A stretch of 64,000 bases of DNA from a virus. The first letter of the stretch is position 1; each line of letters begins with the position of its first letter. The position numbers and the translations under genes are program-made. Location: positions 1 to 64,000 of IMG/VR virus record IMGVR_UViG_3300022602_000038. One strand, given 5' to 3'. Shown here piece after piece: positions 17,808-45,657 of the stretch. The notes beneath the pieces were generated by a model, which was not told the DNA's origin, did no database searches, and was given only the letters and a program-made list of their open reading frames with translations.

Positions 17808-17822
17808 ATATTGTATAATTAA

Positions 17823-20129: not shown

Positions 20130-20675
20130 GTGCTTACCTTTAAACAATTTACAGAAAATTGGACTAGTAAAACCCAAAAAATGAACGGGAAAAACTTATC
20201 CATATTTAATACTGCAAAGATTAATCCTGAAGCAATGTATTATAGGTTTTATTACGTAGACGAAACTCAAAAGTGGGTACCTAAGGCACACGGTTGGGAT
20301 ATTTATTCGGTTACAATTAAGGGGTCAGAAATTATAACGAGTGTTTTAAATTTTAATAAAGCCATTCTTAGCGGTATCACACCTTACTTCCTTTATGTAG
20401 AAAATTTAAGTATGTCAGAAATCGTATTTGTTAAAATAGCAAATGTACGGGGAATTATAAAAGGTTATATTTTTGTAGAAGCAGAAAAACTAGACAATAT
20501 ACCTAATATGGACACTTTTAAAGAACTTAGACTTAAATTACCTGAAGGATGTCCAGCAAAAGATATAGAACAAAACCTATATAAACACTTTATTCCTTTT
20601 GTACATAATAAAGTAAAGATAAAAGAAGTATATAGAAAGGGATCAGAAGAAGCTGGTATAGACATTGATATATGA
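20130..20675 (+). CDS. Single-module tagged protein (putative head-internal protein)
   Basis: TAAGTA at 20116; N-terminus MLTFKQFTE resembles the T4 capsid-targeting sequence; ends RKGSEEAGIDIDI. Confidence 0.75.
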   Translation: MLTFKQFTENWTSKTQKMNGKNLSIFNTAKINPEAMYYRFYYVDETQKWVPKAHGWDIYSVTIKGSEIITSVLNFNKAILSGITPYFLYVENLSMSEIVFVKIANVRGIIKGYIFVEAEKLDNIPNMDTFKELRLKLPEGCPAKDIEQNLYKHFIPFVHNKVKIKEVYRKGSEEAGIDIDI

Positions 20676-23600
20676 GAAACCAATATAAAACTCTATTTGA
20701 AGTTTACTCTGAAAATGTACATAGTGTGGCGCCTAGTAGTATTTTAGATAAAGTAGACGTGGACGTGGCACATATAAAAGCTAGAAAAGTTACCGATCCA
20801 TGGTCATCAGAGTTTATAAAGTACAAAGATTATTATAAAGAATATTTAATTAACAAAGCTAAAAAAGAAGGCTTCTTTGATAACCAAAGTAGAATTGATG
20901 TAGATAGTATGTGGAAAGAGTATAGTGAATTAACAGAAGAAAGAATGAGAGAGGAGCTTATTGATAATTTAGGAGATGAAGCTGTAGACTATGTAATAGA
21001 ACAAGATGAGTTAGATGAAGAAGTAGATGAAAATTTTTATCAAGACTTTAAAAGAAACTATTTACCTAAAATAAAAGCTGAATACGAAAAGAAGTATAAT
21101 GATATAATGGGGAAGCCAAGTAAAGAGCTTGGTATAGATATTGATATAGAAGAAAGCAAAGAGAAACCATCTGCAAGTAAAATAATGGCTGATGCACCGC
21201 CTCCATTAAAGATAATAAAAAATGTCAGTATAAACCCTAAAAAAACATATTATTTATTTCAACAACACAAGGATACAGACAAGGATAGCTATAGGTGGTA
21301 TTTTGTAACGTGGCAGTATGGTACGGATATAAATAGTGCTTTAGAACAATTGGAAAGAAAGAGAGATTTTTTATATAAAAGCGACACACTAAATGTGGTA
21401 CCGTTAGTAGAAGATTGTAATGATGTGTTTCTTTTTGTTTATTCTAATTCTAAAAAAGCGGATTCTATTAACTCCCCATCTTTATATATAAGTAAAGAGG
21501 TAATTAATAAAGTTTATGCAGTCCCTAACGACCCAAGAACACTCGATTCAAATTTAGTAAAGTGTATTGCAGAAATAAACAAAACAACTAACGATAAAAC
21601 AGGCATGGTAGCTCTTCAAGGGTTTAAGAGAAAAGTAGAGAAAGCATTACAAACTGAATTAAAAACAAAAAGTATACTTAAAAAGGGTTCTGAAGAAGCT
21701 GGTATAGAAATTGATATAGAAGAAGCTTACCAACATGTAAAGTCTGAATCGAGAGACCCATCCGATTCACCCGCTTTAGTTAAAGGATTACGCAGCAAGG
21801 TAGTAAGCCTGTGTGATAGTATATTAGGTATAAAAGATGCTAGAGTGGTTAATGATATTATAAGATACTTGGAAGAAGTGGTAGGTCCTAGTTTAAGTTA
21901 TGATGGCTATGCAGACGGGGTAATGCAGAAGTACGTAAGCAGATATATAAATAAAAATCTTAATTCGGGTAGGAAAGTTGATCAACATTTGTTAGATAAT
22001 ATGAATCTTGTGTATGGTTACTGGTCACCAAAAATTAAAAAAGCTATCGCTGATAGCTTTAAGCAAATGTATAAAGAATATAATGCATGGAAAAAAACAC
22101 AAGAAGTACTTAAAAAAGGGTCTGAAGAAGCTGGCATGGAGATTGATATAGAAGAAAGTAATAATGATTTTGATTACGAGTGGGAAACTTTAATAACAAG
22201 TTATCCAGATTCTAATATTTTTATTGAATGGCTATATAAGCATTTAATAGAAGAAGGCAGTATAGATGTAGATAATGATTTAGAGTGTGATATTAAACCT
22301 GGTTTTGAATCTATTCAAATATGGTATAATAGTAGAATAGAAAATGCTTCTTATGACGGTAATAATATTGAAGAAAATATAAAAAGTGAAATAAAGAAGC
22401 TTTATAATAGCCCGGAATACAAAAACTATAAAAAGATTTATAAAAAAAGACAAGACGTGCTTAAAAAAGGCTCTAAAGAAGCTGGTATAGACATTGATAT
22501 AGAAGAGGCTACTTCATGGGATGAATGGGAAATTAATTTTGATATTTTTAAACTTACAGATAAAATTAAAGACTGGAAATGTGTAAATGATTTTTATAAA
22601 TGGCTATATTTAAAGGTAGTTAATAATCCAGATTTTGATCAAGGGCATTGGGACATGTATCCAGAGGAACTTGATAATATAACTAAAAAACTTAATCACT
22701 ACTACCAACATGTATACTCTGAGAATATGTTTAATGTAGCGCCCTTACATATAAAGGATTATATTTATCAAAAGAGTGTTCAATTAGGTGGAACAACACA
22801 TGACGTTTATGTAAAAGTAAAAAATAAATTTCCAGAAGTTGCTAAAGATGCAGAAAAAGTTACAATAGCCCTTATTAAAAGATTTTACAATGAATTTAGA
22901 AAAACTAAAGAATATAAAAATTGTGTAAAAACCCAAGCAGTATACAAAAAAGGGTCTGAAGAAGCTGGTATAGACATTGATATAGAAGAAAACAATGAAC
23001 CTTATTCTGATTTAAATTCATCGTATCATATTTTTCCGTATTTTAAAGTTGTACATAATTGGAAAAATAAAGACGAGTTTACAGAATGGTTGTATAAAGA
23101 AATAGATATAGAGCCAGGTATTAATATAGACTCTAAAGCTGAAAATTGGACACACGCTCAAATGGTGGCTTGTTATATTGATGAACACTGCTACCTAACT
23201 CGTGATGATTACTATGAGGATACTACTGATGAGGATGAAGTTGATAGTTTAGCTTATGAAGATACTTTAAAATTGTTAAAGAAGTATTATAAAAAATTTA
23301 AAATATGGAAAAAAACACAAGACGTGCTTAAAAAAGGTTCTAAAGAAGCTGGCATGGAGATTGACATAGAAGAATCTAATAATAATAATATTCTATTAAA
23401 ACGTAGCAATAATGAACATGATTATGGGGATATATATAGTTTAGTTAAGCACTGGGAAGATGGAGATTTGTTTATAAAGTGGTTATCTGAACGAGTAGAT
23501 AACTGGCCAAGTCACAACAAAGATAATCCATTACAAGAATGGTGGGATAATACAGTTGATGAGTTTTCGAGACTAGATCCTAATCGTTATAACAGTAAAA

Positions 23601-23755
23601 AACGTACAGTTGAAGATAATATAGAATTAGCATTAACCTCTATAGAGTTCTCTTATGATGAGTTTGTTAATACTGATCATTATTTAAAGACAAAAGCTAC
23701 ACGAGATGTACTAAATAAAGGGTCAAAAGAAGCTGGAATAGAAATAGATATATGA
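20672..23755 (+). CDS. 7-module tag-linked polyprotein
   Basis: Leader MRNQYKTLFEVYSE; internal tags at 21110, 21680, 22112, 22463, 22946, 23330; terminal tag 23714. Confidence 0.85.
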   Translation: MRNQYKTLFEVYSENVHSVAPSSILDKVDVDVAHIKARKVTDPWSSEFIKYKDYYKEYLINKAKKEGFFDNQSRIDVDSMWKEYSELTEERMREELIDNLGDEAVDYVIEQDELDEEVDENFYQDFKRNYLPKIKAEYEKKYNDIMGKPSKELGIDIDIEESKEKPSASKIMADAPPPLKIIKNVSINPKKTYYLFQQHKDTDKDSYRWYFVTWQYGTDINSALEQLERKRDFLYKSDTLNVVPLVEDCNDVFLFVYSNSKKADSINSPSLYISKEVINKVYAVPNDPRTLDSNLVKCIAEINKTTNDKTGMVALQGFKRKVEKALQTELKTKSILKKGSEEAGIEIDIEEAYQHVKSESRDPSDSPALVKGLRSKVVSLCDSILGIKDARVVNDIIRYLEEVVGPSLSYDGYADGVMQKYVSRYINKNLNSGRKVDQHLLDNMNLVYGYWSPKIKKAIADSFKQMYKEYNAWKKTQEVLKKGSEEAGMEIDIEESNNDFDYEWETLITSYPDSNIFIEWLYKHLIEEGSIDVDNDLECDIKPGFESIQIWYNSRIENASYDGNNIEENIKSEIKKLYNSPEYKNYKKIYKKRQDVLKKGSKEAGIDIDIEEATSWDEWEINFDIFKLTDKIKDWKCVNDFYKWLYLKVVNNPDFDQGHWDMYPEELDNITKKLNHYYQHVYSENMFNVAPLHIKDYIYQKSVQLGGTTHDVYVKVKNKFPEVAKDAEKVTIALIKRFYNEFRKTKEYKNCVKTQAVYKKGSEEAGIDIDIEENNEPYSDLNSSYHIFPYFKVVHNWKNKDEFTEWLYKEIDIEPGINIDSKAENWTHAQMVACYIDEHCYLTRDDYYEDTTDEDEVDSLAYEDTLKLLKKYYKKFKIWKKTQDVLKKGSKEAGMEIDIEESNNNNILLKRSNNEHDYGDIYSLVKHWEDGDLFIKWLSERVDNWPSHNKDNPLQEWWDNTVDEFSRLDPNRYNSKKRTVEDNIELALTSIEFSYDEFVNTDHYLKTKATRDVLNKGSKEAGIEIDI

Positions 23756-26700
23756 AAAAATTAGATAAAAATATAGCTAAAAAATACAGTCAAATGTACG
23801 ATGAAGATACCTTTTCAAAAGTACCAGCAATACCTTATGATAAGAATTTAAAGTGTATTGAACTTATACGTACCTTTTGTAGAGGGGAGTATACTGTAGA
23901 TTTATCTGAAAAAACGTTGGGAGAACTAGTAGATGAGTTTTACGAATCATATGAACCAGGTGGAGAATTTGCAGAGTATGGGAACCCTTTTAATGAATTT
24001 AGCGAAGACTTTCCTACTAAAACAGAGTTTATTCAACATATTACAAATGGTCATGTAGTAAAAGGTATAAGAACAGAAGAGCAAGAGTTTTTAATGGCTA
24101 GAAAGGATCAAGAGCTACAAATGTATGAAGAGCTTGAACGACTAGAATCAGAAGAAGAATTGGAACCCGATCCTGAGTTTGAAATTATAAAGAATAAAAG
24201 AATAATTAGTATTAAAACAGCTCCTATCTTTAAAAAAGGATCAGAAGAAGCTGGTATGGAGATTGATATTGAAGAGGGGGTTAAGGAAGACTATAAAAAG
24301 TTCGATATTGAAATACCAAGTATAGGGGAGATAATTGATATTGATATGAAAGAGTTTGAGAAAATTTTTAAAAACACTCATAAAGACGAAATCGATTTTG
24401 CCCAGGTAGGTTGTGAAATAGTTAAAGATATAGATGTAAAAAATGAAATGTTGTATGTAATGCTAGGTAAACACGTATTTAATGAAGATACTTTGAGTTT
24501 TCTGAAAGACGAACAAATAACCTATACTCATAAACCTAAAATAAACACAGTATTTTATAGTCGGTCGCATAAAGGACCTATATTTGCTAGCCATTATTTT
24601 GATACAGGATTTAAAGGCGGTGGTATTGAATATTGGACATTAGTGCCTGATAAATCTCATTCACATTTGCCTTTAGTTACAGCTGTGCCTTTTAGTATTG
24701 GGGTAGATAATTGGGCTGAATATAAAAATTGGTTAGAAACTCAAAAAATATTTAAAAAAGGATCAGAAGAAGCTGGTATAGAGATTGATATAGAAGAAAG
24801 TAAAAAAACTAAAGACTTGTACAACACAACTGAAGTAATTAATAAAATAAAACAACGGTTTGGAACTTGTACTTATGCCTTCTGTAAATGGCTATACGAA
24901 GAAGATTTTGCTGATTTCGATTCAGATCTATCTCTTGAAGAAAATATACGAAGTATCTGGGAAAATATGGTTGAAAACGGTATAGATGGCGGTATGAGTA
25001 AAAGTGATTCTATAGAACAAGCTCAAAACTATCTTGATAGTAACATTGAAATGTTTGAAAATAGTAAAGCGTATAAAAATTGTTTAGAAATTCAAGCAGT
25101 ATACAAAAAAGGTTCTAAAGAAGCTGGTATGGAAATTGATATAGAAGAGAACGCTAAAGGCAAATCTAGTAAAAAACAAAGCTCTTTTTATTTAGATAAA
25201 AAAAGCGTGTTTGACCCGCTTCATCCGGAAGATCCAAGTAATTTATATAATATAATAAAACAAGAACTTGGTGATTTTACTGATACATTTTACAAATGGC
25301 TAAGTACAAATACAGTACGAACACATCTTGGGACATTTTTTTTTAATCCATATGAACATTTAGTATTTAATTTGAAGGATTTATGGGATGATCTTTTCAG
25401 TAAGGACTATATTGCTATTTGTGAAGACGGTATAGATAAAAAGGAAGCAGAAAAAATGTGCTTAAAAACAGCACTAAAAGACCTTGAGTCTATTTTTAAA
25501 CAATTTAGAAAAAGTAAAGAATATGAAATTTGTTTAAAAAAAATAATATCCAAGAAAACCGAACCAATATATAAAAAAGGTTCTGAAGAAGCTGGTATAG
25601 ACATTGATATAGAAGAAAATGCTAAAGGCAAATCTAGTAAAAAACAGAGCTTATCTGCTTTAGATAAAAAAAGTGTATTTGCTCCGAACGATCCGAAAGA
25701 TCCAAGTAATTTATATAATATAATAAAACAAGAACTTGGTGATTGTGCTTATACATTCTACAAATGGTTAGGCGCAAGTGCAATTCAAACTTATAGCGGT
25801 GTAACTGCTTGGTCTCCAGAAGAAACTTTTGAACAGAATTTGGAGGATTTATGGGATGATCTTTTTATAAGTGGTTATCTTTACACAGTTAAAGATGGTA
25901 CAGATGAAAAAACAGCAGAAAAAATATGTTTACAATCAGCATTAAAAGAACTTAGGTCTTGGTTTAGAGAGTTTAGAAAAAGTAAAGAATATAAAAATTA
26001 TGTAAAAACCCAAGCAGTATACAAAAAAGGGTCTAAAGAAGCTGGTATGGAAATTGATATAGAAGAAAATGCTAAAAGCAAATCTAGTAAAAAACAAATC
26101 TTAGCCGATTTAGAAAAAAAATTTAAGTTTATTGACCCGTATAATCCGGAAGACCCAATTAATTTATATAGTATATTACAACAAGAATTTGGTGCTTGTG
26201 CTGATTCATTTTTCAAAGGAATTGGTTGGCATTATTTAGACTCTTTTGAAGAGAATTTGGAGTACTTATGGTATGTAGCTTTTGTAGAGGACTACAATGA
26301 GGCACTTGAAAAAGGTATGGATGAAGAGGAAGCAAAAAAGAAGTGCTTTAAATTAGCACTGTATTTTCTTGAGATAGATTATTTTAAGAAATTTAGAGAA
26401 AGTAAAGAATATGAAATTTGTTTAAAAACCCAAGCAGTATTAAAGAAAGGCTCTAAAGAAGCTGGTATGGAGATTGATATAGAAGAAAATGCTGAAGGCA
26501 AAACTAGTAAAAAACAAATCTTAACCGATTTAGAAAAAAAATTTAAACTTGTTGACCCGATTTGGCCGGAAGATCCAATTAATTTATATAATATATTACG
26601 ACAAGAATTTGGTGCTTGTGCTGATTCATTTTTCAAAGGGATTAAAAAAATCAAAAACTATTGGGGGTATAGAGAACCCTCTGAAGATTTTGAAGAGAAT

Positions 26701-27318
26701 TTGTATTTTTTATGGAATATAGTTTTTATAGAAGACTATACTAAGGCCCTTATAAAAACAGAGCACTTAGGTACAAATGAAAAAGAAAAAGAGGAAATAC
26801 AAAAGAAATGCTTTAAATCAGCACTAAGAAATCTTGAGATAAACTATTTTAGTGAATTTAGAAAAAGTGAAATATATAAAAATTGTGTAAAAACCCAAGC
26901 AGTATACAAAAAAGGGTCTGAAGAAGCTGGTATGGAGATTGATATAGAAGAAAATGCTAAAGACTTCATGCCTGTAGGTGCTGGTGATACGTTTTATTTT
27001 ACTAAAAAATATATAGGTATTGAAAATAAAAACGAGATATTTGACTTTATAAAGTTTTTAGATACTTACATTAAACCTAAACAGCGTAAAACAGACGCTA
27101 ATACAGTTGATAGTATGTATGAGCAAATGACTTGGGATGCAGCTGAAAAGCTACCAAGCACTACTTCAAAAGGATATTATAGAGTACAAGATGAAGAACT
27201 AGCATTATGTCGTAAAAAAATTATACAACAGCTTTGGGAAAAGTATGAACTATGGCAAAAAGCGCAAGAAGTGCTTAAAAAAGGTTCCAAAGAAGCCGGG
27301 GTAGACATTGACATATAA
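23752..27318 (+). CDS. 8-module tag-linked polyprotein
   Basis: Internal tags at 24232, 24754, 25105, 25573, 26023, 26443, 26908; terminal tag 27277. Confidence 0.85.
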   Translation: MKKLDKNIAKKYSQMYDEDTFSKVPAIPYDKNLKCIELIRTFCRGEYTVDLSEKTLGELVDEFYESYEPGGEFAEYGNPFNEFSEDFPTKTEFIQHITNGHVVKGIRTEEQEFLMARKDQELQMYEELERLESEEELEPDPEFEIIKNKRIISIKTAPIFKKGSEEAGMEIDIEEGVKEDYKKFDIEIPSIGEIIDIDMKEFEKIFKNTHKDEIDFAQVGCEIVKDIDVKNEMLYVMLGKHVFNEDTLSFLKDEQITYTHKPKINTVFYSRSHKGPIFASHYFDTGFKGGGIEYWTLVPDKSHSHLPLVTAVPFSIGVDNWAEYKNWLETQKIFKKGSEEAGIEIDIEESKKTKDLYNTTEVINKIKQRFGTCTYAFCKWLYEEDFADFDSDLSLEENIRSIWENMVENGIDGGMSKSDSIEQAQNYLDSNIEMFENSKAYKNCLEIQAVYKKGSKEAGMEIDIEENAKGKSSKKQSSFYLDKKSVFDPLHPEDPSNLYNIIKQELGDFTDTFYKWLSTNTVRTHLGTFFFNPYEHLVFNLKDLWDDLFSKDYIAICEDGIDKKEAEKMCLKTALKDLESIFKQFRKSKEYEICLKKIISKKTEPIYKKGSEEAGIDIDIEENAKGKSSKKQSLSALDKKSVFAPNDPKDPSNLYNIIKQELGDCAYTFYKWLGASAIQTYSGVTAWSPEETFEQNLEDLWDDLFISGYLYTVKDGTDEKTAEKICLQSALKELRSWFREFRKSKEYKNYVKTQAVYKKGSKEAGMEIDIEENAKSKSSKKQILADLEKKFKFIDPYNPEDPINLYSILQQEFGACADSFFKGIGWHYLDSFEENLEYLWYVAFVEDYNEALEKGMDEEEAKKKCFKLALYFLEIDYFKKFRESKEYEICLKTQAVLKKGSKEAGMEIDIEENAEGKTSKKQILTDLEKKFKLVDPIWPEDPINLYNILRQEFGACADSFFKGIKKIKNYWGYREPSEDFEENLYFLWNIVFIEDYTKALIKTEHLGTNEKEKEEIQKKCFKSALRNLEINYFSEFRKSEIYKNCVKTQAVYKKGSEEAGMEIDIEENAKDFMPVGAGDTFYFTKKYIGIENKNEIFDFIKFLDTYIKPKQRKTDANTVDSMYEQMTWDAAEKLPSTTSKGYYRVQDEELALCRKKIIQQLWEKYELWQKAQEVLKKGSKEAGVDIDI

Positions 27319-27539
27319 TGTATTCATTCAACGAAGATAAAACGTATAAGGTTACTAGTATAGGATTTAATAAGATAGATGAAATAGCTATTAAAGCTAT
27401 GGTTAAGGGTATGGTTGATACTGGAGAGTATAATAGAACCTATATGCAAGAGGTTGTTATTGCCAATTACCCTAATGTTACTAGAGACAGAGCAGCTATT
27501 CTAGTATTAGAAGGTATGTATTTAGCTAGTAAAAACTAG
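27318..27539 (+). CDS. Hypothetical protein
   Basis: 73 aa ORF translationally coupled to upstream stop. Confidence 0.6.
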   Translation: MYSFNEDKTYKVTSIGFNKIDEIAIKAMVKGMVDTGEYNRTYMQEVVIANYPNVTRDRAAILVLEGMYLASKN

Positions 27540-27564
27540 TACTAGATTACATAAGTAATACAAT

Positions 27565-28911
27565 ATGAAGAATGATCAAGCTTTAAGGTTACTTGCTGAA
27601 CAGTATCAACAAGTACAGGTCAATGAAATTTTAATAGAAGGTTTCAACAGAGACCTTGAAGCTTTTGAAGCATATCTTATTAAAGAAGGCCTTTGGGACA
27701 CCATTAAACAGAAAGGTGCTGCTTTAGCATCTGGTGCAAAGAGCGCTTTAGTGCAGCCTTTAATTAAAGCTATCATGAATAAGATCGCTCAAAGCGATCC
27801 AGAAGGTTTTAAAAAGATTCAAGCAGCAGCTGCTTCTGGTGAAAGTGGTATACAACAATTATTAAATAGCCCTGAGGTTAAGCAACAACAGCAACAAATC
27901 AGTCAAGACGTTGCTGCTACAACTGAAAGTATTGATGATGGTTTATATAGCGAAGTGTTTGAAGAGGCAATCGGTTATTTAATTGAAGCTAGAGTACTAA
28001 GCAATGACCCTCGTAATGTTCGCCGTAGAGAGTTAGCTGCACAAAAGAGAGCTGCTTCTCAGCAACCAGCTTCAAATAAAGCTGCTCCAGGTAAACAACC
28101 TCCAGTGCTTAAGCCAAGTGCAAAACCAGCAGCTCCAGCAACTCCATCAGCTAAACCCACTACACCTACTACTGCTCAACCTCCAGCAGCACAAGGTGGT
28201 TTTATTCAAAAAGCTTATGCATGGATGAAACAACATCCTAAACTAACAGCCGCGGGTGGTTTGGCTTTAATGGCCGCACTTGGTGTCGCTACATTAGGTG
28301 CTGGTGGTATTGTTCCTTTAATTGCTTCAGTAGCACATGGTGCTGCAGCAGGTGCTGCAGGTGCTGGTGTTGTTGGTGGTGCTTTAAAGGGTGGTGCTAA
28401 TGTAGTAGGTCAAATGTCTAAAGGCGGTAAGGTAGACTGGAAACAGGCTGGTAAAGCTGCTTTACAAGGAGCTAAAGCTGGTGCTAAAGCTGGTGCTGTT
28501 GCCGGTGGTGTAGGTGCTGCATTAGGTGGACTTATTGCTGGTGGTGTTAAGATCGCACATGGATTGCAATCAGTTTTACAAGGCGGTAGTGGTACAGTAT
28601 CATTAAACGATTTACATCAAGCAACTCAATCTGCTCAACAAGTTGGTACACATAAGAGTGCTTTAAGTCAGGAAGTTGATCAGATTAATGCAGATTGTGA
28701 CGCTAAAGCAAATGCAATGCAATCATTAGGTCTTAAAAGCGCTACAATTTATGGCGATGGTAATGGAGCATTCCACATACAAGGTAATGACGGTATGGTT
28801 CACAACTTTAATGCCCAAGGTGTTGAAATTGGTAAATCCGCCGCTAGTGCAGCTCAGTCAGCTGCTACTTCAGCACCTAATGCTGCTGGAAAATTAGATA
28901 CAGGATTTTAA
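27565..28911 (+). CDS. Leader-bearing Ala/Gly-rich protein with hydrophobic segments (putative internal/ejected virion protein)
   Basis: TAAGTA 27552; leader MKNDQALRLLAEQYQQVQVNE; several L/I-x-E sites; GxxxG-rich hydrophobic region. Confidence 0.7.
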   Translation: MKNDQALRLLAEQYQQVQVNEILIEGFNRDLEAFEAYLIKEGLWDTIKQKGAALASGAKSALVQPLIKAIMNKIAQSDPEGFKKIQAAAASGESGIQQLLNSPEVKQQQQQISQDVAATTESIDDGLYSEVFEEAIGYLIEARVLSNDPRNVRRRELAAQKRAASQQPASNKAAPGKQPPVLKPSAKPAAPATPSAKPTTPTTAQPPAAQGGFIQKAYAWMKQHPKLTAAGGLALMAALGVATLGAGGIVPLIASVAHGAAAGAAGAGVVGGALKGGANVVGQMSKGGKVDWKQAGKAALQGAKAGAKAGAVAGGVGAALGGLIAGGVKIAHGLQSVLQGGSGTVSLNDLHQATQSAQQVGTHKSALSQEVDQINADCDAKANAMQSLGLKSATIYGDGNGAFHIQGNDGMVHNFNAQGVEIGKSAASAAQSAATSAPNAAGKLDTGF

Positions 28912-28922
28912 ATAAAAGTTAA

Positions 28923-29054
28923 ATGACACAAACAGTTATTGTATTTGGAGTAGTGATTGGGGCAGTTGTTTATAGTATCCGTAAAGCGTTTGTAAATAAA
29001 TCCAAATGCTGTACTTGTGGTAAATGTAAATGTAAAGACAAGTTAAAGAAATAA
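28923..29054 (+). CDS. Small Cys-rich membrane protein (FeoB-associated-like architecture)
   Basis: Not in track; MTQTVIVFGVVIGAVVYSIRKAFVNKSKCCTCGKCKCKDKLKK. Confidence 0.6.
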   Translation: MTQTVIVFGVVIGAVVYSIRKAFVNKSKCCTCGKCKCKDKLKK

Positions 29055-29090
29055 CTTGAACTTTTATTCTTGTGTACCATAATATGGTGT

Positions 29091-29393
29091 ATGAGAGCTT
29101 ATTCAGCCATCCCAGGTCTAATCACCCACAAAGTTTGGTTACATGATCCAATTGCTCCATCTGTTTATTTAAAAGAAAACGGATATAAGGAATGGTGGTT
29201 AAACAATTTATTGCACCGAGAAGATGGTCCAGCAATTGAGCATATTAACGGGGATAGGGAATACTATCTAAATGGTACACGACATAGAACTGATGGTCCA
29301 GCTATTATTTTTAAAAATAAGACCTATTTTGAGTACTGGGTTGACGGAAAACAGTTAACTGAACAAGAATTTAAACACAATTATCCTGTATAA
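29091..29393 (+). CDS. LHRxDGPA-repeat protein
   Basis: LHREDGPAIE, RHRTDGPAII; start moved to ATG 29091 after TTGAAC-N16-CATAAT. Confidence 0.75.
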   Translation: MRAYSAIPGLITHKVWLHDPIAPSVYLKENGYKEWWLNNLLHREDGPAIEHINGDREYYLNGTRHRTDGPAIIFKNKTYFEYWVDGKQLTEQEFKHNYPV

Positions 29394-29474
29394 AATCCCA
29401 ATTACACTTTATTATATCCGTTAATATGTATCTATACGTACTAACGCTCACTGTGGAATACTAGAAATACTAAT

Positions 29475-29663
29475 ATGAGACAAAGAATACTACAAGTAAC
29501 CAAAGAAGCTTTCAATAACATCTATGGTAATGCTTATCTAAAAGGCAAGTACGGAGATGAATGGGTTGAGGTAATGTTAAAAGACCTTGCAAGAGAGGGC
29601 ACGGTTGTTAAGTTCTTAGATGTTGAGAAAAAAGAAACTAAAAGAGAAGTAAATAAGCTATAA
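29475..29663 (+). CDS. Hypothetical protein, paralog of 38034..38189
   Basis: F...Y.N.YL..KY.D.W..V....L......F.D shared. Confidence 0.7.
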   Translation: MRQRILQVTKEAFNNIYGNAYLKGKYGDEWVEVMLKDLAREGTVVKFLDVEKKETKREVNKL

Positions 29664-29664
29664 C

Positions 29665-29862
29665 ATGAAAAAGAAATCCATTATTAAACAAACAGCTTCT
29701 TGGCTTGTGATGGTTCAAAAGAATTCAAGAACGCAAAGCCATTATGTTGAGTTGCCAACCTCTCTTGTAAACGAATTAGGTTGGACAAATGATGATGCTC
29801 TTATTTGGACTCCACAAGAGGGTGGTTCGTTTAAGGTATCCAAGGTAGAAAGAAAAAAGTGA
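29665..29862 (+). CDS. AbrB/MazE-like DNA-binding protein
   Basis: VELPTSLVNELGWTNDDALIW. Confidence 0.6.
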   Translation: MKKKSIIKQTASWLVMVQKNSRTQSHYVELPTSLVNELGWTNDDALIWTPQEGGSFKVSKVERKK

Positions 29863-30161
29863 AAGACTATCTTCGTTATTTAATTGATGAGGGATTTGCG
29901 GATATTAGGTACTGGTTTGATGAAAATGATAAAATAGAAGGACGTATATCCACTATTAAAGAGTATGAGCCATTATACCTTGAATCAGATGAAGAGGATT
30001 ATAAAGGAACTTTACTTTTGTGGCGGGATTATGGTAAATGCTATACCTATAAAACTACAAGAGAATTTTTTGTTAACTATGGTAAGAGGTGTTTAAATGA
30101 AAGTCAAGCTCTCTTACAATCAAATAAATGGATAAGAGAAATAAAAGAAGCATACCGTTAA
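29859..30161 (+). CDS. Hypothetical protein
   Basis: 100 aa ORF. Confidence 0.6.
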   Translation: MKDYLRYLIDEGFADIRYWFDENDKIEGRISTIKEYEPLYLESDEEDYKGTLLLWRDYGKCYTYKTTREFFVNYGKRCLNESQALLQSNKWIREIKEAYR

Positions 30162-30170
30162 ACCTATACT

Positions 30171-30302
30171 ATGAAGATAATAAAGCACTTAACATATCAG
30201 GAACCATTACCTTCAACTACTTCAGGCAAGATATGGTATTATGCTAAATGGTTATTGTTAGGAGTTATTATAGGTTTCCTCTTTGGGTGTATCTTTTTAT
30301 AA
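30171..30302 (+). CDS. Small C-terminally anchored membrane protein
   Basis: Not in track; MKIIKHLTYQEPLPSTTSGKIWYYAKWLLLGVIIGFLFGCIFL. Confidence 0.55.
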   Translation: MKIIKHLTYQEPLPSTTSGKIWYYAKWLLLGVIIGFLFGCIFL

Positions 30303-30346
30303 GCTATATAGATTGGATTCAACTAGTACTTCAGATAAGTAATAAG

Positions 30347-31816
30347 GTGCGCAACCAATACAAACTTTTAGCAGAAAAATACATTCAGATTAAAGAATGG
30401 GTAAACAAAGAAGATGAATACTTAGCAAATATTGATTTTGATAAATCACCTGAAAGCATTCAAAATAAAATTATTGATTTAGTGATAGAGCCTGAAACGA
30501 TTGAGAGTTTTAAAGTTGAGGATTACTGGGTAGATGATCATTTGCTATGTTACGGGGTTATCATAAACGATTTAAAGCTTAGTTTTTGGTGGCAAGACGA
30601 CCCTGAAGATACAGATGAAGCGGATGATCAACCACCTAAAAATTCAATGTATGTTGTGTTAGATAAAATGTGTAATAATGGTAATCTTCAATTAAAAGAC
30701 CACCCTAAATTACAAAAAGAGGTAGCAAATTTATTAAAAGTACATTTTATTAGAGATGATTCTCTTATAAAGAGCCGCTTTGAAAAAAAGAAAATCGATC
30801 CAATATATAAAAAAGGTTCTGAAGAAGCTGGTATAGAGATTGATATAGAAGAAGCTTACCAGCAGGTAATATCTGAAGAGAGGAATCCAGATGATCCACC
30901 TGCTTTAGTTAATTTTTACAACGGGGAATTAGTAGAATTATTAGGTAAAATACTAGGTATAAAAGATGCTAGAGAAGTTAATAATATTATAAAATTTTTG
31001 GAAGAGGTGGTAGGGCCTAGTCTAGGTTATCAGGACTATGCAGGCGCTGCAATGCAAAGGTACGTAAACGAATATATAGATAAAAATCTTAACGGTAAAG
31101 ATTTTTTGGATCCGCGTATATACGATTATATAAATATTAATTATAATTGGTCGTCAAAACCGCCAAAAATTAAAAAAGCTATCGCTGATAGCTTTAAGCA
31201 AATGTACAAAGAATATACTGTGTGGAAAAAAACACAAGAAGTACTTAAAAAGGGTTCTGAAGAAGCTGGTATAGAGATTGATATAGAAGAAGGTGTTGAA
31301 GAAGACTATAAAAAATTCGATATTGAAATACCAAGGGTAGGAGATATTGCTCAAGTTAATCCGGAAGAGTGGGATAAAATTTATAAAAACACTTTTAAAA
31401 ACAAAACTCATTATACGAAATTTGGGACATTAGTAGTTACAGATATAGATGTAAAAAATGAAATGTTATATGTAGTACTAGGTAAATATAAAAAACAGGA
31501 ATCTACTTTAAATTTTTTAAAAGACGAACAAATAACCTATGATCATAAACCTAAAATAAATACTATATTTTATAGCCGATTTTATAAAGTACCTATACTT
31601 GTTAATAGTTACTATAGTGTAACACAATTAGATGGTGGTGAAGCTATTGAATATTGGTTATTATGTCCCGATAAATCTCAACCGCACTTACCTTTAGCTA
31701 CCACTGTACCTTTTAGTGTCGGGGTAGATAATTGGTCTAAATATAAAAATTGGTTAAAAACTCAAAAAATACTTAAAAAGGGTTCTGAAGAAGCTGGTAT
31801 AGAGATTGACATATAA
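30347..31816 (+). CDS. 3-module tag-linked polyprotein
   Basis: Start reassigned to GTG 30347 (MRNQYKLLAEKYIQIKE) after TAAGTA 30336; tags at 30809, 31247, 31775. Confidence 0.85.
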   Translation: MRNQYKLLAEKYIQIKEWVNKEDEYLANIDFDKSPESIQNKIIDLVIEPETIESFKVEDYWVDDHLLCYGVIINDLKLSFWWQDDPEDTDEADDQPPKNSMYVVLDKMCNNGNLQLKDHPKLQKEVANLLKVHFIRDDSLIKSRFEKKKIDPIYKKGSEEAGIEIDIEEAYQQVISEERNPDDPPALVNFYNGELVELLGKILGIKDAREVNNIIKFLEEVVGPSLGYQDYAGAAMQRYVNEYIDKNLNGKDFLDPRIYDYININYNWSSKPPKIKKAIADSFKQMYKEYTVWKKTQEVLKKGSEEAGIEIDIEEGVEEDYKKFDIEIPRVGDIAQVNPEEWDKIYKNTFKNKTHYTKFGTLVVTDIDVKNEMLYVVLGKYKKQESTLNFLKDEQITYDHKPKINTIFYSRFYKVPILVNSYYSVTQLDGGEAIEYWLLCPDKSQPHLPLATTVPFSVGVDNWSKYKNWLKTQKILKKGSEEAGIEIDI

Positions 31817-31994
31817 AAAATTTATGAATTCATTAAGTGACTGGAAGAAAATGCCTCAAGAGCATTATACTGAATATAAAGGTCGCAGAATGAAAGTCAA
31901 AGAAGTAGTTGCCTTCTTAGAAGGAGAGCTTAAAAGAGTAGATGAACTATTAAAGCGCTCTGAAAAAGATAAACAAACAACTAACATAAAATGA
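31806..31994 (+). CDS. Hypothetical protein (start uncertain, perhaps ATG 31824)
   Basis: Short ORF in operon. Confidence 0.5.
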   Translation: MTYKKFMNSLSDWKKMPQEHYTEYKGRRMKVKEVVAFLEGELKRVDELLKRSEKDKQTTNIK

Positions 31995-32218
31995 ACAGAC
32001 AAGAACAACAAACCATTGATATGAAATGGATGTTAAAGTTTTACGGTTATAAGACCGAAGACAATCTAAAGTTTACAAAGGTAGTGGGTAAGAATATAGC
32101 CCGATCGGTTACCTTTCTAGAAGACTTTAAAGTAGCTATTAAGTACTTAAACAAAGAGACCAAGTTTACGTTCTCTGAAACTATGTTAATTGAGGACGGG
32201 TTTAATTGGATAGCATAA
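31991..32218 (+). CDS. Hypothetical protein
   Basis: 75 aa ORF. Confidence 0.6.
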   Translation: MNRQEQQTIDMKWMLKFYGYKTEDNLKFTKVVGKNIARSVTFLEDFKVAIKYLNKETKFTFSETMLIEDGFNWIA

Positions 32219-32227
32219 AAAAATAAC

Positions 32228-32416
32228 ATGACATTATTAGAAGCGTTTAAGCATGTGCAGTACTTTGCAGATAATTACTATCAAGGTAGTGTAACCAAAG
32301 CTGTTGCAGCCCTAGAAGCCTCTCACGAACATATAACAGATGATAGTAAAGAGGCACTAACTCTGTTTAAAGAGTGGCAACAAAGAATGAATAACTGGTT
32401 AGAGTATGTAAAATGA
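32228..32416 (+). CDS. Hypothetical protein
   Basis: 62 aa ORF. Confidence 0.6.
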   Translation: MTLLEAFKHVQYFADNYYQGSVTKAVAALEASHEHITDDSKEALTLFKEWQQRMNNWLEYVK

Positions 32417-32469
32417 GACTTAAAGAATAGCTTGATAACACCTTAAGAATAGTATAAGTATTAATATAT

Positions 32470-32823
32470 ATGCGCGACCAATATAAAGTTTTACTAGAAA
32501 GATATCAGGAAATGCCTTCTAATGAACCAGAAGAGGAACCAGAAATGGATATGGACGAAGAAGAAGGTAACCATGAACTAATAGTTAGATATGAATTTGT
32601 TATGGAAACAGATGATAAGGTGCTTAGTAAGCTTGATAGAATAGCTGCTCAAGTAGGAATAACAGAAGGGTATGATGGTGCTGAAATATATGGAGCTTTT
32701 AATCCACCTATGCGTCAGGTGTATTATGTCAGTAAAGATGTCAGGCAATTAGAGAAATTAGCTGATCTTATTGTTTCACAAATACCTGATATAGAGTTTG
32801 AAACTTACATACAAGAAGCGTAA
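32470..32823 (+). CDS. Leader-bearing acidic protein
   Basis: TATAAGTA 32453; MRDQYKVLLERYQE. Confidence 0.75.
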   Translation: MRDQYKVLLERYQEMPSNEPEEEPEMDMDEEEGNHELIVRYEFVMETDDKVLSKLDRIAAQVGITEGYDGAEIYGAFNPPMRQVYYVSKDVRQLEKLADLIVSQIPDIEFETYIQEA

Positions 32824-32829
32824 TAAAGT

Positions 32830-33189
32830 ATGCGCAACCGGTACAAAGTACTAGAAGAGGCATATGATAAAGTAAAAGAGAACAATTGGTGGGAGGAGCT
32901 TAAGAAAAAGAACCCTATTTTATATGCCAAGCACAGAGAGAAGTACAAGGCCAAGATGCGCGAGTACAACAAAAAGAGGTTAGATGCAATTAAACCAGAC
33001 AGAAAACCTAAACCAGAAAAGCCATCTGGTTTAGTGCACCCAACAGTGCCAAGAGCAATACAAAGTGCGCAATGGTGGAGGGATTTAAAAGCACAAAACC
33101 CAGAAGAATACGCTAGAAGAAACGCCATAAAGACTCAAAGAGCTAGAGAAAGAAGAGCACAGCTAAAGAACACCAATAAGGCAAGCTAA
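32830..33189 (+). CDS. Leader-bearing basic protein with two WW..LK..NP..YA repeats
   Basis: MRNRYKVLEEAYDKVKE; WWEELKKKNPILYA and WWRDLKAQNPEEYA. Confidence 0.75.
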   Translation: MRNRYKVLEEAYDKVKENNWWEELKKKNPILYAKHREKYKAKMREYNKKRLDAIKPDRKPKPEKPSGLVHPTVPRAIQSAQWWRDLKAQNPEEYARRNAIKTQRARERRAQLKNTNKAS

Positions 33190-33217
33190 AAAAAGGTAAA
33201 AAAAAGGTAATATTTTG

Positions 33218-33246
33218 TTGCCTTTATACCTTAAAGTATGCATAAT
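33218..33246 (+). promoter_or_regulatory. Sigma70-type early promoter with A-tract UP region
   Basis: TTGCCT-N17-CATAAT preceded by aaaaaaaggt x2; similar upstream context at 39182-39206. Confidence 0.65.
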
Positions 33247-33293
33247 GTACGTATAATAAAAGAAACAATTACGTTTCATTATTATAATGTTCT

Positions 33294-33554
33294 ATGAAAG
33301 TTAAAAATCATCTATTATCAAAGAAATCTCTACCTATTGATACAACCATACCAGTACGTTATGCCACTCAACTTAAAAACAAGAAAGGTGAATGGTACTT
33401 TCCAGGTGGTACATTAACGCACGATTCAATGAGAAGTGCTAACAAGATACTAAAGGTTTATAGCCTTGGACCTAAATCGTTTAAGGATGCCGTTGGTAAG
33501 ACTGTTAGATTTATTAGATTTGACCCGGTTATTGTTAAAGAAGTAGAGCTATAA
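33294..33554 (+). CDS. Basic hypothetical protein
   Basis: 86 aa ORF between promoter and terminator. Confidence 0.65.
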   Translation: MKVKNHLLSKKSLPIDTTIPVRYATQLKNKKGEWYFPGGTLTHDSMRSANKILKVYSLGPKSFKDAVGKTVRFIRFDPVIVKEVEL

Positions 33555-33560
33555 CATATT

Positions 33561-33595
33561 AAAAGGATATATCTTAATTGGTATATCCTTTTTTT
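33561..33595 (+). terminator. Intrinsic terminator
   Basis: aaaaggatatat...gtatatccttttttt. Confidence 0.75.
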
Positions 33596-33623
33596 ATTGT
33601 ATTATAATGATAAGTAATGGTAC

Positions 33624-34103
33624 ATGAGGAGTCAATATAAAGTTTTAGCAGAAGCTTATAATAGGGTACTTGAAACAAGTAAGCCTATTACAAAAGAAGA
33701 CACCTCTAATGAGTGGTACAATGATGCAAGAAAGCAGATAGATAGTTCCGACGGAGCCTACGGGTTTTCTTTCTTTAAAACAATAAAGGATTGGCCACAT
33801 CCAGATGAATTTATAAAGTTTTTATGTAAACACATATACGGTGTTAGTGTAGATTATTTTGAAATAGTTACGTATGGTATTGATAAATTCATTACTACGA
33901 TGTTTGGACATGAGGTAGACAGTATTGCAGGGGATATAAGAGATAAGAACCCGCATTTAAGTCATAAAGAGATAAATGATATTTCAGATAAATTAGCGGT
34001 AAAAAAACTAAAAGAATATTATAACCAATTTAAAACTTACCAAAAGGCTCAAGCAGTACTTAAAAAAGGTTCCGAAGAATCCGGAGTAGACATAGACATA
34101 TAA
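33624..34103 (+). CDS. Single-module protein with both leader and tag
   Basis: TAAGTA 33611; MRSQYKVLAEAYNRVLE ... KKGSEESGVDIDI. Confidence 0.85.
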   Translation: MRSQYKVLAEAYNRVLETSKPITKEDTSNEWYNDARKQIDSSDGAYGFSFFKTIKDWPHPDEFIKFLCKHIYGVSVDYFEIVTYGIDKFITTMFGHEVDSIAGDIRDKNPHLSHKEINDISDKLAVKKLKEYYNQFKTYQKAQAVLKKGSEESGVDIDI

Positions 34104-34107
34104 TAAC

Positions 34108-34560
34108 ATGAGAGACAACACTACCAAACTACTAGAAGAGGCATATAAAAAGGTTCAAGAAAGAGATGGACGTTTAGAGACATGGGTAAAAGGAGATCAA
34201 AATGAACGTAATGAATATAAAAACTACGTTCAAACCAAGTTTAATGGGGATTATAGAAAGGGTGCACAAGCGTGGGCTCAAATGAAGAACAGACCCACGG
34301 ATGATGTCTTTAATGATAAAGCACGTTTAGATGCATTTATGAAAGCAGACTTCGACTTCAACACATTTGATGAACAGGATTGGAACAATTATTGGCTCCT
34401 AGCACAGCACTGCGATAAAAATAGGGAATTTCAAAAGAAAGCACTAGACATTATCGAACAGTATCTTGGCACCGAACACAGTCATTATAAGTACCTTTAC
34501 GATAGATTATCCTTAGCACTGACCGGTAAACAGAAGTACGGCACACAGAATGCAAAATAA
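34108..34560 (+). CDS. Leader-bearing DUF6624-like protein
   Basis: MRDNTTKLLEEAYKKVQE; WLLAQHCD...Q...YLYDR.....GKQKYGTQ. Confidence 0.7.
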   Translation: MRDNTTKLLEEAYKKVQERDGRLETWVKGDQNERNEYKNYVQTKFNGDYRKGAQAWAQMKNRPTDDVFNDKARLDAFMKADFDFNTFDEQDWNNYWLLAQHCDKNREFQKKALDIIEQYLGTEHSHYKYLYDRLSLALTGKQKYGTQNAK

Positions 34561-34576
34561 GGACTATATAAGGGGA

Positions 34577-35044
34577 TTATCTTAGTTCACCTTCGTCAGC
34601 ATTATGATCCTTGATCCACTGTAACAGATCATTGCCCTTTAGTACATTATCAATAGTTATAGTTTCTGTGCTTGTGTAGTTGCCCGGTTCAATGCTACCC
34701 ATATTTTGATTAGAGATATGTTTATTAAACTTACCAGCATTTGTATGTATCACTAATAAAGCACCGTGTTTGGATATATCTGCACTAGAAGGGATATAGT
34801 TACCTTTGTTTAATTTTCTTTGTATCTGACTAGACAGTGCACAGTATACCGCTCTTGCCCCTTTTGAATCACTAGCAAACACCGCCGGTATGGCCTCTTT
34901 CTTATAAAGCTCTTGAGTAAACTTTCCTACAGTCGGAGTTAACCCCTGTGCAAGTATTGACGGAACATTATCAATTAGGGTACCGTGATACAGTCTAAGA
35001 CTATCATCAGTTGTATTTTCATAAAAGAAATCTCTAAACGTCAT
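34577..35044 (-). CDS. NAD-dependent ADP-ribosyltransferase/Tpt1-like fold protein with capsid-targeting-like N-terminus
   Basis: Start reassigned to ATG 35044 (MTFRDFFYE); LYHGT....SIL..GL.P and AVFAS motifs. Confidence 0.65.
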   Translation of the reverse strand: MTFRDFFYENTTDDSLRLYHGTLIDNVPSILAQGLTPTVGKFTQELYKKEAIPAVFASDSKGARAVYCALSSQIQRKLNKGNYIPSSADISKHGALLVIHTNAGKFNKHISNQNMGSIEPGNYTSTETITIDNVLKGNDLLQWIKDHNADEGELR

Positions 35045-35049
35045 TATAG

Positions 35050-35057
35050 TATTTATA
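35050..35057 (-). promoter_or_regulatory. T4-type late promoter TATAAATA
   Basis: Exact consensus on minus strand 5 nt before ATG 35044. Confidence 0.7.
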
Positions 35058-35100
35058 AAAAAGCTTGATATAATGCAATAAGTTACCATAATACGGTGTT

Positions 35101-35250
35101 ATGAGTAACTTTAACTGTGAACAATATGTACTAGATAACTACGGTGAAGAAATAGTAGATATGTTCGTAGAGGAGTATGGTATATATGCTACAACATATC
35201 TATATAGCTTAACACAGGATGAAGTAGATGATGTATTAGCTAAGTACTAA
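35101..35250 (+). CDS. Small acidic early protein
   Basis: Not in track; MSNFNCEQYVLDNYGEEIVDMFVEEYGIYATTYLYSLTQDEVDDVLAKY after TTGATA-N16-CATAAT. Confidence 0.65.
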   Translation: MSNFNCEQYVLDNYGEEIVDMFVEEYGIYATTYLYSLTQDEVDDVLAKY

Positions 35251-35251
35251 T

Positions 35252-36472
35252 ATGAGAGATAGGACTACCATACTACTAGAAGAGGCATATGAAAAGGTTA
35301 AAGAAGCGGCTATACTACCGGATGAATCTAAAGTTGATAAAGTAATGGATATATTGAACAAAGCACAACAGTTAAGACAGCAAGGATATAGTGTAAAAAA
35401 AACAGAACAAAATGCAATAAAAGAGTTGGCACTTCTTAATATAACCATTAAGGATTTGGAAGCGCCTATAGGCGCCGGGATTGTATACAATCCCATCAAT
35501 TTTTATGATACAGGAAGAATAGTAATTAGTAGAGATTTATTTAAAAGGTACATAGACTTGCCCTTTAGTAAAAGTAAGGTCGAGTGTAAACATAGAGAGA
35601 AAGTAATGAGACGATTAATCGGTCACGAATATATTCATCAATTGCAACTTATACGTAAATTAAAAAGGATCCATTCATTAAATAAGCCTGCAGGCATCTA
35701 TGATAATGAAGAAAGGATCAATTCATTAAAAAAGCTTGCAGGCATCTATAATAATGAAGTACGGTATCATAGCCGCCATTTTGATAATAAAGACCCTAAG
35801 TTTTATTATAACAATTATAACGAAATAATGACCTATGCCTATGAAATGGCAAAGAAGATATACGATAAGTTGAATATAGATAAGTACAAAGCAAGGAACT
35901 TTACCAAGGATCAAATTTACAAAGTAGTACAAAGGTTTATGCAAGTAGATAGATTTGCTACAAACAAAATGAGTAAAGAAATTGTTCAGCACCTCACCCC
36001 AGATAATGTAAAACGGTACTACAAGTACATTTACGATTATGTAGGACAGTTGTATGATGGTATATTAAAAGAACCAAACAATAAGGTAAGGGATTCATTA
36101 AACGAAAAGGGTGTTATAGTTAGTGGAAGATTTTATGGTCAAACGATACAAGACTATGTAGAGAGGTTTTTACCTAAGCATTTTAAAGAAAAAAATAAAG
36201 TCAACAAAGAAGAATTATTAGACTTTGTAAAGTATATTCAAGATAATATCTATAAACATATACCAGTTACTCGTACTAAATTCTCCAGTAAAAATGTATT
36301 ACCTTTATTGTATCTAGCAAATAAGATTATACTAAGTAATCCTAATTTAACTTCAAATGCAGTATATAAACAAGTATTAGAGTTCCTTTATAAAGAGTAC
36401 ACCTACCATAAGAAGACACAAGCAGTACTTAAGAAGGGCTCTAAAGAAGCAGGCATTGATATAGATATATAA
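35252..36472 (+). CDS. Leader- and tag-bearing protein with zincin-like HExxH domain
   Basis: MRDRTTILLEEAYEKVKE; GHEYIHQLQ...Y....NEI..YAYE; ends KKGSKEAGIDIDI. Confidence 0.8.
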   Translation: MRDRTTILLEEAYEKVKEAAILPDESKVDKVMDILNKAQQLRQQGYSVKKTEQNAIKELALLNITIKDLEAPIGAGIVYNPINFYDTGRIVISRDLFKRYIDLPFSKSKVECKHREKVMRRLIGHEYIHQLQLIRKLKRIHSLNKPAGIYDNEERINSLKKLAGIYNNEVRYHSRHFDNKDPKFYYNNYNEIMTYAYEMAKKIYDKLNIDKYKARNFTKDQIYKVVQRFMQVDRFATNKMSKEIVQHLTPDNVKRYYKYIYDYVGQLYDGILKEPNNKVRDSLNEKGVIVSGRFYGQTIQDYVERFLPKHFKEKNKVNKEELLDFVKYIQDNIYKHIPVTRTKFSSKNVLPLLYLANKIILSNPNLTSNAVYKQVLEFLYKEYTYHKKTQAVLKKGSKEAGIDIDI

Positions 36473-44329: not shown

Positions 44330-44362
44330 ACGAATCTTAATCTTTATTATTCTATCCGGTGG

Positions 44363-45656: not shown

Positions 45657-45657
45657 T

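Follow-up and report, generated by a model that had tools for sequence, protein, structure and literature searches.

Here, we describe a locus of an uncultured freshwater T4-type phage in which six late genes carry a common tag of 13 residues (consensus KKGSEEAGIEIDI) that closes every one of these genes and, in three of them, also joins unrelated protein modules into chains of up to eight. We consider it rather probable that the locus is a hypervariable set of late genes for cargo packaged in the head, a counterpart of the T4 internal-protein genes that is organised as polyproteins. The phage probably packs the chains into its capsid and cleaves them into individual proteins for injection; packaging, cleavage, injection and the roles of the modules are what we infer from sequence comparison and structure prediction. 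The record spans 140,720 bp and is 65% complete, and the window is the whole stretch of 64,000 nucleotides of it that was analysed. We call the phage T4-type because a large terminase with Terminase_6N/6C domains and collagen-like fibres are encoded in the window. Megablast and tblastn searches against cultured phages gave no match to the locus, and the best hit of the terminase was only 36% identical.

A six-frame scan of the window revealed 21 copies of the tag, all on the plus strand between positions 20634 and 36469 and one of them, at 21110, degenerate. They are distributed over the genes A to F with 1, 7, 8, 3, 1 and 1 copies, respectively. A degenerate DNA pattern for the tag matched 20 times in the window, with 0.00 matches expected from 100 shuffles; no further copies were found elsewhere in the 140,720-bp record, and scanning IMG/VR and 185,579 species genomes with the DNA pattern yielded no matches. 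The first-pass annotation of this DNA, which had counted 21 copies in six genes, was thus confirmed with none expected by chance. It was equally correct on the two contexts of the tag: all 15 internal copies are directly followed by Glu-Glu and read Ile-Glu-Glu, and in all six genes the stop codon stands right behind the last Ile.

Synonymous variation between the copies had been taken as a sign of selection on the peptide, and codon counts agree with this. Pairwise comparison inside the tag gave 729 synonymous versus 450 non-synonymous differences, whereas the 13 codons upstream gave 268 versus 1854. Internal copies are nearly identical as DNA across ~40 nt and deviate from the DNA consensus by 0-4 nucleotides, terminal copies by 2-9; the tags of F (9 differences) and E (8) nevertheless contain only 0-2 unusual residues. 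To judge from these sequences, the peptide of the terminal copies is under selection. The same data bear on the idea that the tag matters as DNA alone, i.e. as a recombination handle held uniform by gene conversion whose peptide has no role. The near-identity of the internal copies would fit this, as would the natural variants that break at tags and a part of D2 in the relative L002 that looks converted towards B3. However, synonymous differences exceed non-synonymous ones in the tag, the reverse of its flanks, and the tag DNA of E and F has diverged yet still encodes the tag, which makes a role as DNA alone very improbable.

All genes of the locus lie on the plus strand. Gene A (20130-20675) encodes one module with a terminal tag behind an N-terminus resembling the T4 IPI leader, with TAAGTA at 20116; its GTG start is backed by ATG-started homologues in L004 and P0015. 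Gene B (20672-23755), ATGA-coupled to A, consists of a 10-residue leader and seven modules (B1-B7) with six internal joints and the terminal tag, and gene C (23752-27318), ATGA-coupled to B, of eight modules (C1-C8) with seven internal joints and the terminal tag. The start of gene D (30347-31816), which encodes a leader and three modules, is most likely the GTG at 30347 and not the ATG at 30248: the corrected start restores the common leader, lies 5 nt downstream of TAAGTA and agrees with the database gene call P0008. Modules D2 and B3 are paralogues (61%), as are D3 and C2 (62%). Gene E (33624-34103) carries a leader, one helical 'WLY' module and the terminal tag, gene F (35252-36472) a leader, a body of 406 aa with a His-Glu-x-x-His motif (a weak zincin lead) and the terminal tag. 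The chains of seven, eight and three modules were hence as first described, with module lengths measured at 117-200 aa; most modules are acidic (pI 4.5-6). A seventh gene (39236-39841) without leader ends in a degenerate tag that keeps the final Ile-Asp-Ile. Leader genes without tag were found at 27565-28911 (448 aa, preceded by TAAGTA), 32470-32823, 32830-33189, 34108-34560 (immediately behind E) and 41891-42268 (likewise preceded by TAAGTA), and an untagged ORF at 29070-29393 is homologous to tagged repeat modules of the P0015 polyprotein (51% over 55 aa, E 1e-16). Searches for Pfam and PHROG domains in A-F returned nothing usable, a lone weak rIII-like PHROG match having no passing stretch, and neither these searches nor fold searches with a model of E pointed to a recognisable function of any module.

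The leaders of B, D, E and F end in Leu-x-Glu at positions 8-10, and Leu/Ile at position 8 with Glu at position 10 is shared by these four genes and six untagged ones. T4 IPII and IPIII, compared along with IPI from NC_000866, have the same leader format. Processing in T4 is governed by positions 8 and 10, ten residues are enough for targeting, and gp21 cleaves after L/I-X-E (PMC9026906). An earlier statement that most of the tagged genes share an N-terminal leader holds with two qualifications: T4-like starts were seen on all six genes, but A, although identical to the IPI leader in six of its first nine residues, is devoid of the canonical (L/I)-x-Glu site, and the leader-like N-terminus of C has Lys in place of Glu at position 10. 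Leaders were also found in the relatives G001 and G005, and close relatives differ in gene content while the leader is kept. As had been noted, the tagged genes follow a TAAGTA late-type motif or are ATGA-coupled; A, D, E and F start 5-8 nt downstream of the motif, whereas coupling applies to B and C, each with the gene before it. Within 4-10 nt before the start, TAAGTA also precedes the terminase, fibre, tube and baseplate genes and all leader genes.

Between related phages, modules have been rearranged, lost and duplicated with breaks precisely at the joints. Close relatives show the orders C1-C2-C3-C8(-B4), B1-B6-B7 and B1-B6-B6-B7 as well as a fusion of the A leader with B6, all with breakpoints at joints, and the module sets vary among P0005-P0010, L004 and P0016. 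The tag type tracks the phage and not the module: in P0016, a module body that shares 89% identity with C6 bears another tag. Relatives with five further tag types have (I/L)-x-Glu at the end of 45 of 45 true internal joints (46 pattern matches minus a false regex match at residue 53 of P0017), mostly followed by Asn, Ser, Ala or Gly. Because homologous modules bear different tags yet all these joints keep (I/L)-x-Glu, the tag is most likely a phage-specific protease joint. Terminal copies end one or two residues short of the joint Glu, and some terminal tags of relatives are shortened or altered.

Structure prediction suggests that the joint is a disordered linker between separately folded modules. 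In an AlphaFold model of C5-C6, two separate helical modules flank residues 143-158 (the end of the tag, Glu-Glu and the start of the next module), which are modelled as coil with pLDDT <50; in the model of E, the leader forms a helix apart from the rest, with a disordered segment behind it. The last 6-7 residues of the tag are predicted as coil in both. Foldseek searches (PDB, BFVD) and a wide VIA-align search with the E model gave nothing above helical-bundle noise. We also checked whether the tag could be an integral strand of an ordinary repeat domain, which would contradict the first-pass interpretation; the predicted coil and the sharing of the tag by at least nine unrelated module types led us to reject this. 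The same diversity of modules is at odds with ordinary multi-domain proteins that remain uncut and use the tag as a conserved interdomain linker. Such linkers are common in repeat proteins, and cleavage has so far been deduced from sequence. Against uncut proteins, stand-alone genes end in the tag, (I/L)-x-Glu is kept in the joints of six tag types, and copy number and order of modules vary freely among near relatives, so that we regard this explanation as improbable.

If the locus encodes head-packaged cargo, as we favour, a short capsid-targeting leader would open each gene and one to eight unrelated modules of ~13-22 kDa each would follow in a chain. In each joint, Lys-Lys-Gly-Ser would act as a helix cap, followed by a short, flexible run in which acidic and hydrophobic residues alternate and by an (Ile/Leu)-x-Glu site. 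A gp21-type protease inside the prohead would take off the leader and cleave every joint behind its Glu, which would free three to eight small proteins per chain that exit together with the DNA. The terminal tag would be a joint with a stop codon in place of Glu, and the near-identical joint DNA would double as crossover point for the swap, duplication and loss of modules. Since every phage uses one joint sequence of its own throughout, this sequence probably must match the protease or core of that phage. The original proposal of a packaged polyprotein cut at Ile-Glu-Glu thus gains from the fit to the gp21 rule, the 45 joints, the modelled disorder of the linker, the T4-like leaders and the start motif of virion genes. 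PF03420 (gp21-family protease), PF07068 (gp23) and PF07230 (T4 portal) were not found in the 65%-complete 140-kb record and five related partial records. Since gp23 and the portal are likewise missing, the head module probably lies outside the available DNA, and we assume that the phage has one of T4 type. Further points count against head-packaged cargo: (I/L)-x-Glu is a low-information motif, the leaders of A and C deviate as described, the gene at 39236 has no leader, and T4 internal proteins are basic, in contrast to the mostly acidic modules here.

A different protease would be at work if the chains were unpackaged effector arrays, cut in the cytoplasm of the infected cell by a dedicated metallopeptidase. 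Candidates are gene F with its His-Glu-x-x-His motif and weak zincin/SprT/ArdC-like leads, or a DUF2201_N metallopeptidase-VWA protein and a MoxR-type ATPase encoded directly upstream of the locus (15960-19310); self-processing by such peptidases has been proposed for polyvalent proteins (PMC5512222). However, the Atlas scores of F stay below 0.9 for every named family and are leads only, the conserved junction with Glu at P1 and Ile/Leu at P3 follows the gp21 rule, and the leaders fit the T4 targeting format. Processing in the cytoplasm therefore appears unlikely.

A purely joint-like function would leave the single-module genes E and F without need for a tag, yet both keep the peptide despite 8-9 nucleotide changes. 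It is therefore possible, though we doubt it, that the tag is mainly an address peptide, i.e. a phage-specific cargo-loading or docking signal for the inner shell, core, portal or a host target, and that joint cleavage only frees modules with a copy of their own. This was the view of the first-pass annotation, and it is compatible with packaging. A homologue of E with 63% identity (P0002) retains 12 of 13 tag residues, the tag follows the phage and not the module, tag and leader can occur independently of each other (some genes carry the leader only, that at 39236 the tag only), and the last 6-7 residues of the tag are modelled as free coil. As terminal copies stop just before Glu, the C-termini of terminal and released modules would be nearly alike. 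On the other side, terminal tags are more diverged than internal ones, here and in relatives, which points to a weaker constraint at sites that require no cut; gene conversion can likewise make the tags of one genome uniform, and the tag is unlike the encapsulin consensus. Some partner of the tag, which could be one for docking or ejection, is favoured by the conservation of terminal copies and the phage-specific variants, but the tag could also be only a protease joint and recombination handle. More tentatively still, a dedicated partner (the inner capsid wall, the core/portal, or a host protein after injection) might read the tag as a phage-specific C-terminal address, a lineage 'postcode' for a plug-in set of injected proteins, in which case a tagged zincin of L003/L001 would be captured or decoy cargo that makes use of this postcode.

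The closest known counterparts of the proposed cargo proteins are T4 IPI, IPII, IPIII and Alt, which share the short leader with Leu/Ile-8 and Glu-10 and the fit to cleavage after (L/I)-x-Glu; the C-terminus of Alt is trimmed as well (PMC9026906). The gene set is variable between related phages in both systems, and late expression is known in T4 and deduced here. T4 internal proteins are single, whereas up to eight unrelated modules are chained here by a fixed joint of 13-20 residues that also stands at the C-terminus; unlike in T4, the modules are mostly acidic and the 65%-complete record yielded no protease gene. Polyvalent proteins (Iyer et al. 2017, PMC5512222) likewise unite many effector-like domains (2-15) in one polypeptide near virion genes and are expected to enter the virion, perhaps undergo processing, and reach the host along with the DNA, as we predict here for chains of 3-8 modules with the start motif common to structural genes. 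Known conflict domains plus an embedded peptidase are their defining features, in contrast to the present chains, in which Pfam and PHROGs revealed neither; among A-F, a weak peptidase lead was seen in the separate gene F only. The word 'linker' is absent from the main text of PMC5512222, and we therefore take a uniform repeated joint as not described there. In the giant phages phiKZ, 201phi2-1 and SPN3US, gp21-like proteases cleave numerous head and ejection proteins behind the Glu of a short motif; this motif is Ser/Ala-x-Glu in place of (I/L)-x-Glu, and the consulted passages of PMC9026906 mention neither a long conserved joint nor shuffled chains. Encapsulins of family 1 also use a short common C-terminal peptide, by which unrelated cargo docks in an HK97-fold shell (PMC8346489), an analogy for the address function only: by eye, the tag does not match their consensus, and no encapsulin shell gene was seen among the scanned ORFs. 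Internal proteins with a targeting leader are thus of a known kind from T4, and joint-linked module chains are without published description in the searchable literature. The initial claim that no such system has been described stands to this extent, with T4 internal proteins and polyvalent proteins as close precedents.

Provided that the chains do enter the capsid and are cleaved, the DNA of this phage group is delivered together with about twenty small proteins that form a shuffled set. Leader, module and joint would then form a plug-in grammar, which would explain the quick turnover of injected counter-defence proteins in T4-type phages, mark out a large pool of uncharacterised injected effectors for functional screens and serve as a natural blueprint for filling a capsid with several proteins encoded by a single gene. 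Joint variants that differ between phages are a direct handle on the specificity of protease or partner.

Several other candidate roles were rejected. A role as a sliding-clamp-binding tail is not favoured, as the phage DNA polymerase (121906-124470) ends in an aromatic tail of the Leu-Phe-x-Leu-Phe type, to which the tag bears no likeness; the tag of the phage tmRNA ends in Ala-Leu-Ala-Ala-Ala and is unrelated; and the phage ClpP sits among nucleotide-metabolism genes. Asn-Pro-Gly-Pro occurs in no joint, which speaks against 2A-like ribosome skipping, and a slippery site for a B-C frameshift fusion was not seen at the ATGA overlap, where ordinary termination-reinitiation coupling fits. As a side observation, the small zincin of L003/L001 bears the same tag and is encoded in a cellular-looking low-GC island.

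A six-frame scan of the window recovered 21 copies of a 13-residue peptide tag (consensus KKGSEEAGIEIDI), one of them degenerate, all on the plus strand and confined to a single stretch (20634-36469). This agrees with the first-pass annotation, which had placed 21 copies in six genes. These are A (20130-20675, 1 copy), B (20672-23755, 7), C (23752-27318, 8), D (30347-31816, 3; start better placed at GTG 30347), E (33624-34103, 1) and F (35252-36472, 1). Searched as a degenerate DNA pattern, the tag gave 20 matches in the window versus 0.00 expected from shuffles. At the protein level, the full 140,720-bp record held no copies beyond the 21. That internal copies run into Glu-Glu and that the genes end at the tag, as also claimed, proved true throughout: Glu-Glu follows 15 of 15 internal copies, and the stop codon comes directly after the final Ile in 6 of 6 genes. 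A diverged tag also closes a seventh gene (39236-39841).

Splitting the genes at the tags yields 21 modules of 117-200 aa, plus F at 406 aa. Stripped of the tag, the modules (numbered from N- to C-terminus) form one larger helical family (B4-B7, C3-C7, E), two paralogue pairs (B3/D2, 61%; C2/D3, 62%) and several singletons, so the same tag sits on unrelated bodies. No Pfam or PHROG family was matched in any of the six genes, and fold searches with the model of E matched no known fold. An untagged ORF with Asp-Gly-Pro-Ala-Ile-Glu repeats (29070-29393) has homologues among the tagged modules of P0015, a polyprotein from a relative; hence, one module family occurs both with and without the tag. 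Selection on the peptide, proposed earlier, is borne out by 729 synonymous versus 450 non-synonymous codon differences within the tag and the reverse in its flanks (268 versus 1854). The E and F tags still encode the peptide despite 8-9 changes in 39 bases relative to the DNA consensus. Both observations show that the peptide is under selection, also in terminal copies, which need no cut.

E, modelled with AlphaFold using 13 paralogues as input, is predicted to be a helical bundle (mean pLDDT 75). Its N-terminal leader is a low-confidence helix detached from the bundle, with a disordered stretch behind it. The last helix of E extends through the first half of the tag, the final six residues being coil. 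A two-module model of C5-C6 gave two separate helical modules, with coil at pLDDT <50 in residues 143-158 (tag end, Glu-Glu and start of the next module). Together, the models predict that the tag is a helix cap plus exposed linker rather than a strand of a repeat domain.

Related metagenomic phages carry the same genes with different module sets, as protein searches revealed. C-type chains read C1-C2-C3-C8-B4 or C1-C2-C3-C8, and B-type chains B1-B3-B5-B6-B7, B1-B6-B6-B7 or B1-B6-B7; on one contig, the first 17 residues of gene A are joined via a partial tag to a B6-like module. In a near-identical gene D (L002:665-2233), the middle of D2 looks, when read by eye, closer to its paralogue B3; if this likeness holds, gene conversion has acted between modules that belong to separate genes. 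From 1.84 billion representatives, a profile search retrieved only 15 proteins at E 0.001 or better, including an unrelated repeat protein (P0020). The matches include chains of other phages with different tags, in which variant cores (e.g. GEWDMTGL, GLKMTGLL, GEWDIKGL, GWDLSAL) follow a conserved Lys-Gly-Ser/Thr. P0016, whose bodies reach 89% identity to window modules, has its own tag throughout. In a relative whose terminase is 80% identical, a variant-tag chain lies at the contig end. Across all tag types, (I/L)-x-Glu ends 45 of 45 true internal joints (a 46th script match, in P0017, was a false regex match and is excluded), mostly followed by Asn, Ser, Ala or Gly; terminal copies end one or two residues short of the joint Glu. 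The grammar of leader, module and joint is conserved, the modules are shuffled, and the joints are predicted to be flexible.

Four tagged genes (B, D, E and F) and six untagged ones (27565, 32470, 32830, 34108 and 41891 in the window, 100804 beyond it) start with a common 10-residue leader (MRNQYKVLAE in E), in which position 8 is Leu/Ile and position 10 is Glu. T4 IPII and IPIII start with MKTYQEFIAE (NC_000866); T4 IPI starts with MKTFKEFT and gene A with MLTFKQFT, and gene C has a leader-like N-terminus with Lys at position 10. In T4, ten leader residues are enough to target a protein to the capsid, processing depends on positions 8 and 10, the prohead protease gp21 cleaves after L/I-X-E, and T-even phages place varied proteins behind such leaders (PMC9026906). 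TAAGTA lies 4-10 nt upstream of the leader-gene starts and likewise of terminase, fibre, tube and baseplate genes (20116, 27552, 30336, 32455, 33611, 35241, 41875, 47641, 51643, 56816 and others), which suggests co-expression with virion genes. The motif could serve as a late promoter or start signal, one that would leave the mRNA almost without a 5' leader.

In the simplest reading, the chains of A-F would be head-targeted cargo: we infer that they are packaged, cut by a gp21-type protease at every joint and injected. Each phage would have a joint tuned to it, which would double as a crossover site for module exchange. The data leave room for the docking signal suggested in the first-pass annotation, by analogy to encapsulin cargo with its C-terminal targeting peptides (PMC8346489): peptide-level selection that includes terminal copies and phage-specific tag variants would fit it, but terminal copies have diverged further than internal ones and the tag is not known to have a partner. 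As for the head-targeted cargo reading, leader-bearing proteins are a kind already known from T4 internal proteins, and polyvalent proteins are a second conceptual precedent (PMC5512222). The earlier remark that no described system is known with this layout holds within the searchable literature, where we found no account of shuffled unknown modules linked by a fixed, phage-specific joint that is retained at the C-terminus.

The record, from IMG/VR, is an estimated 65% complete and has no close cultured phage (best terminase match 36% identical). Its first 64 kb, the window, encode a T4-type large terminase, collagen-like fibre proteins, a tryptophan halogenase and a MoxR-ATPase/VWA-metallopeptidase pair; the remainder holds long ORFs resembling tail sheath, tube and baseplate genes by size and position, a DNA polymerase, a ClpP homologue (107117-107680 of the record) and a tmRNA (100377-100759) whose degradation tag ends in Ala-Leu-Ala-Ala-Ala. 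Neither gp21 protease, gp23 nor T4 portal was detected here or in five partial records of related phages, so the head module probably lies outside the available DNA. The metallopeptidase-ATPase pair, a DUF2201_N metallopeptidase-VWA protein with a MoxR-type AAA ATPase (15960-19310), sits immediately upstream of the tag cluster and may be linked to processing or assembly. Along the window, the halogenase and several genes for 2OG-Fe(II) oxygenases lie at scattered positions (13336-14805, 2841-3887, 8109-9420, 43673-47073).

One tag copy looks cellular. Two metagenome contigs, L003 and L001, have the same 3' flank and therefore represent one locus, encoding on the minus strand a 171-aa protein with His-Glu-x-x-His that ends in a perfect tag (L003:46-561, L001:3769-3836). 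It adjoins a 1264-aa Ser/Thr kinase with Sel1 repeats in an island of ~27% GC, flanked by SIMPL and AAA-ATPase genes at 39-45% GC, and could be phage cargo captured in a host.
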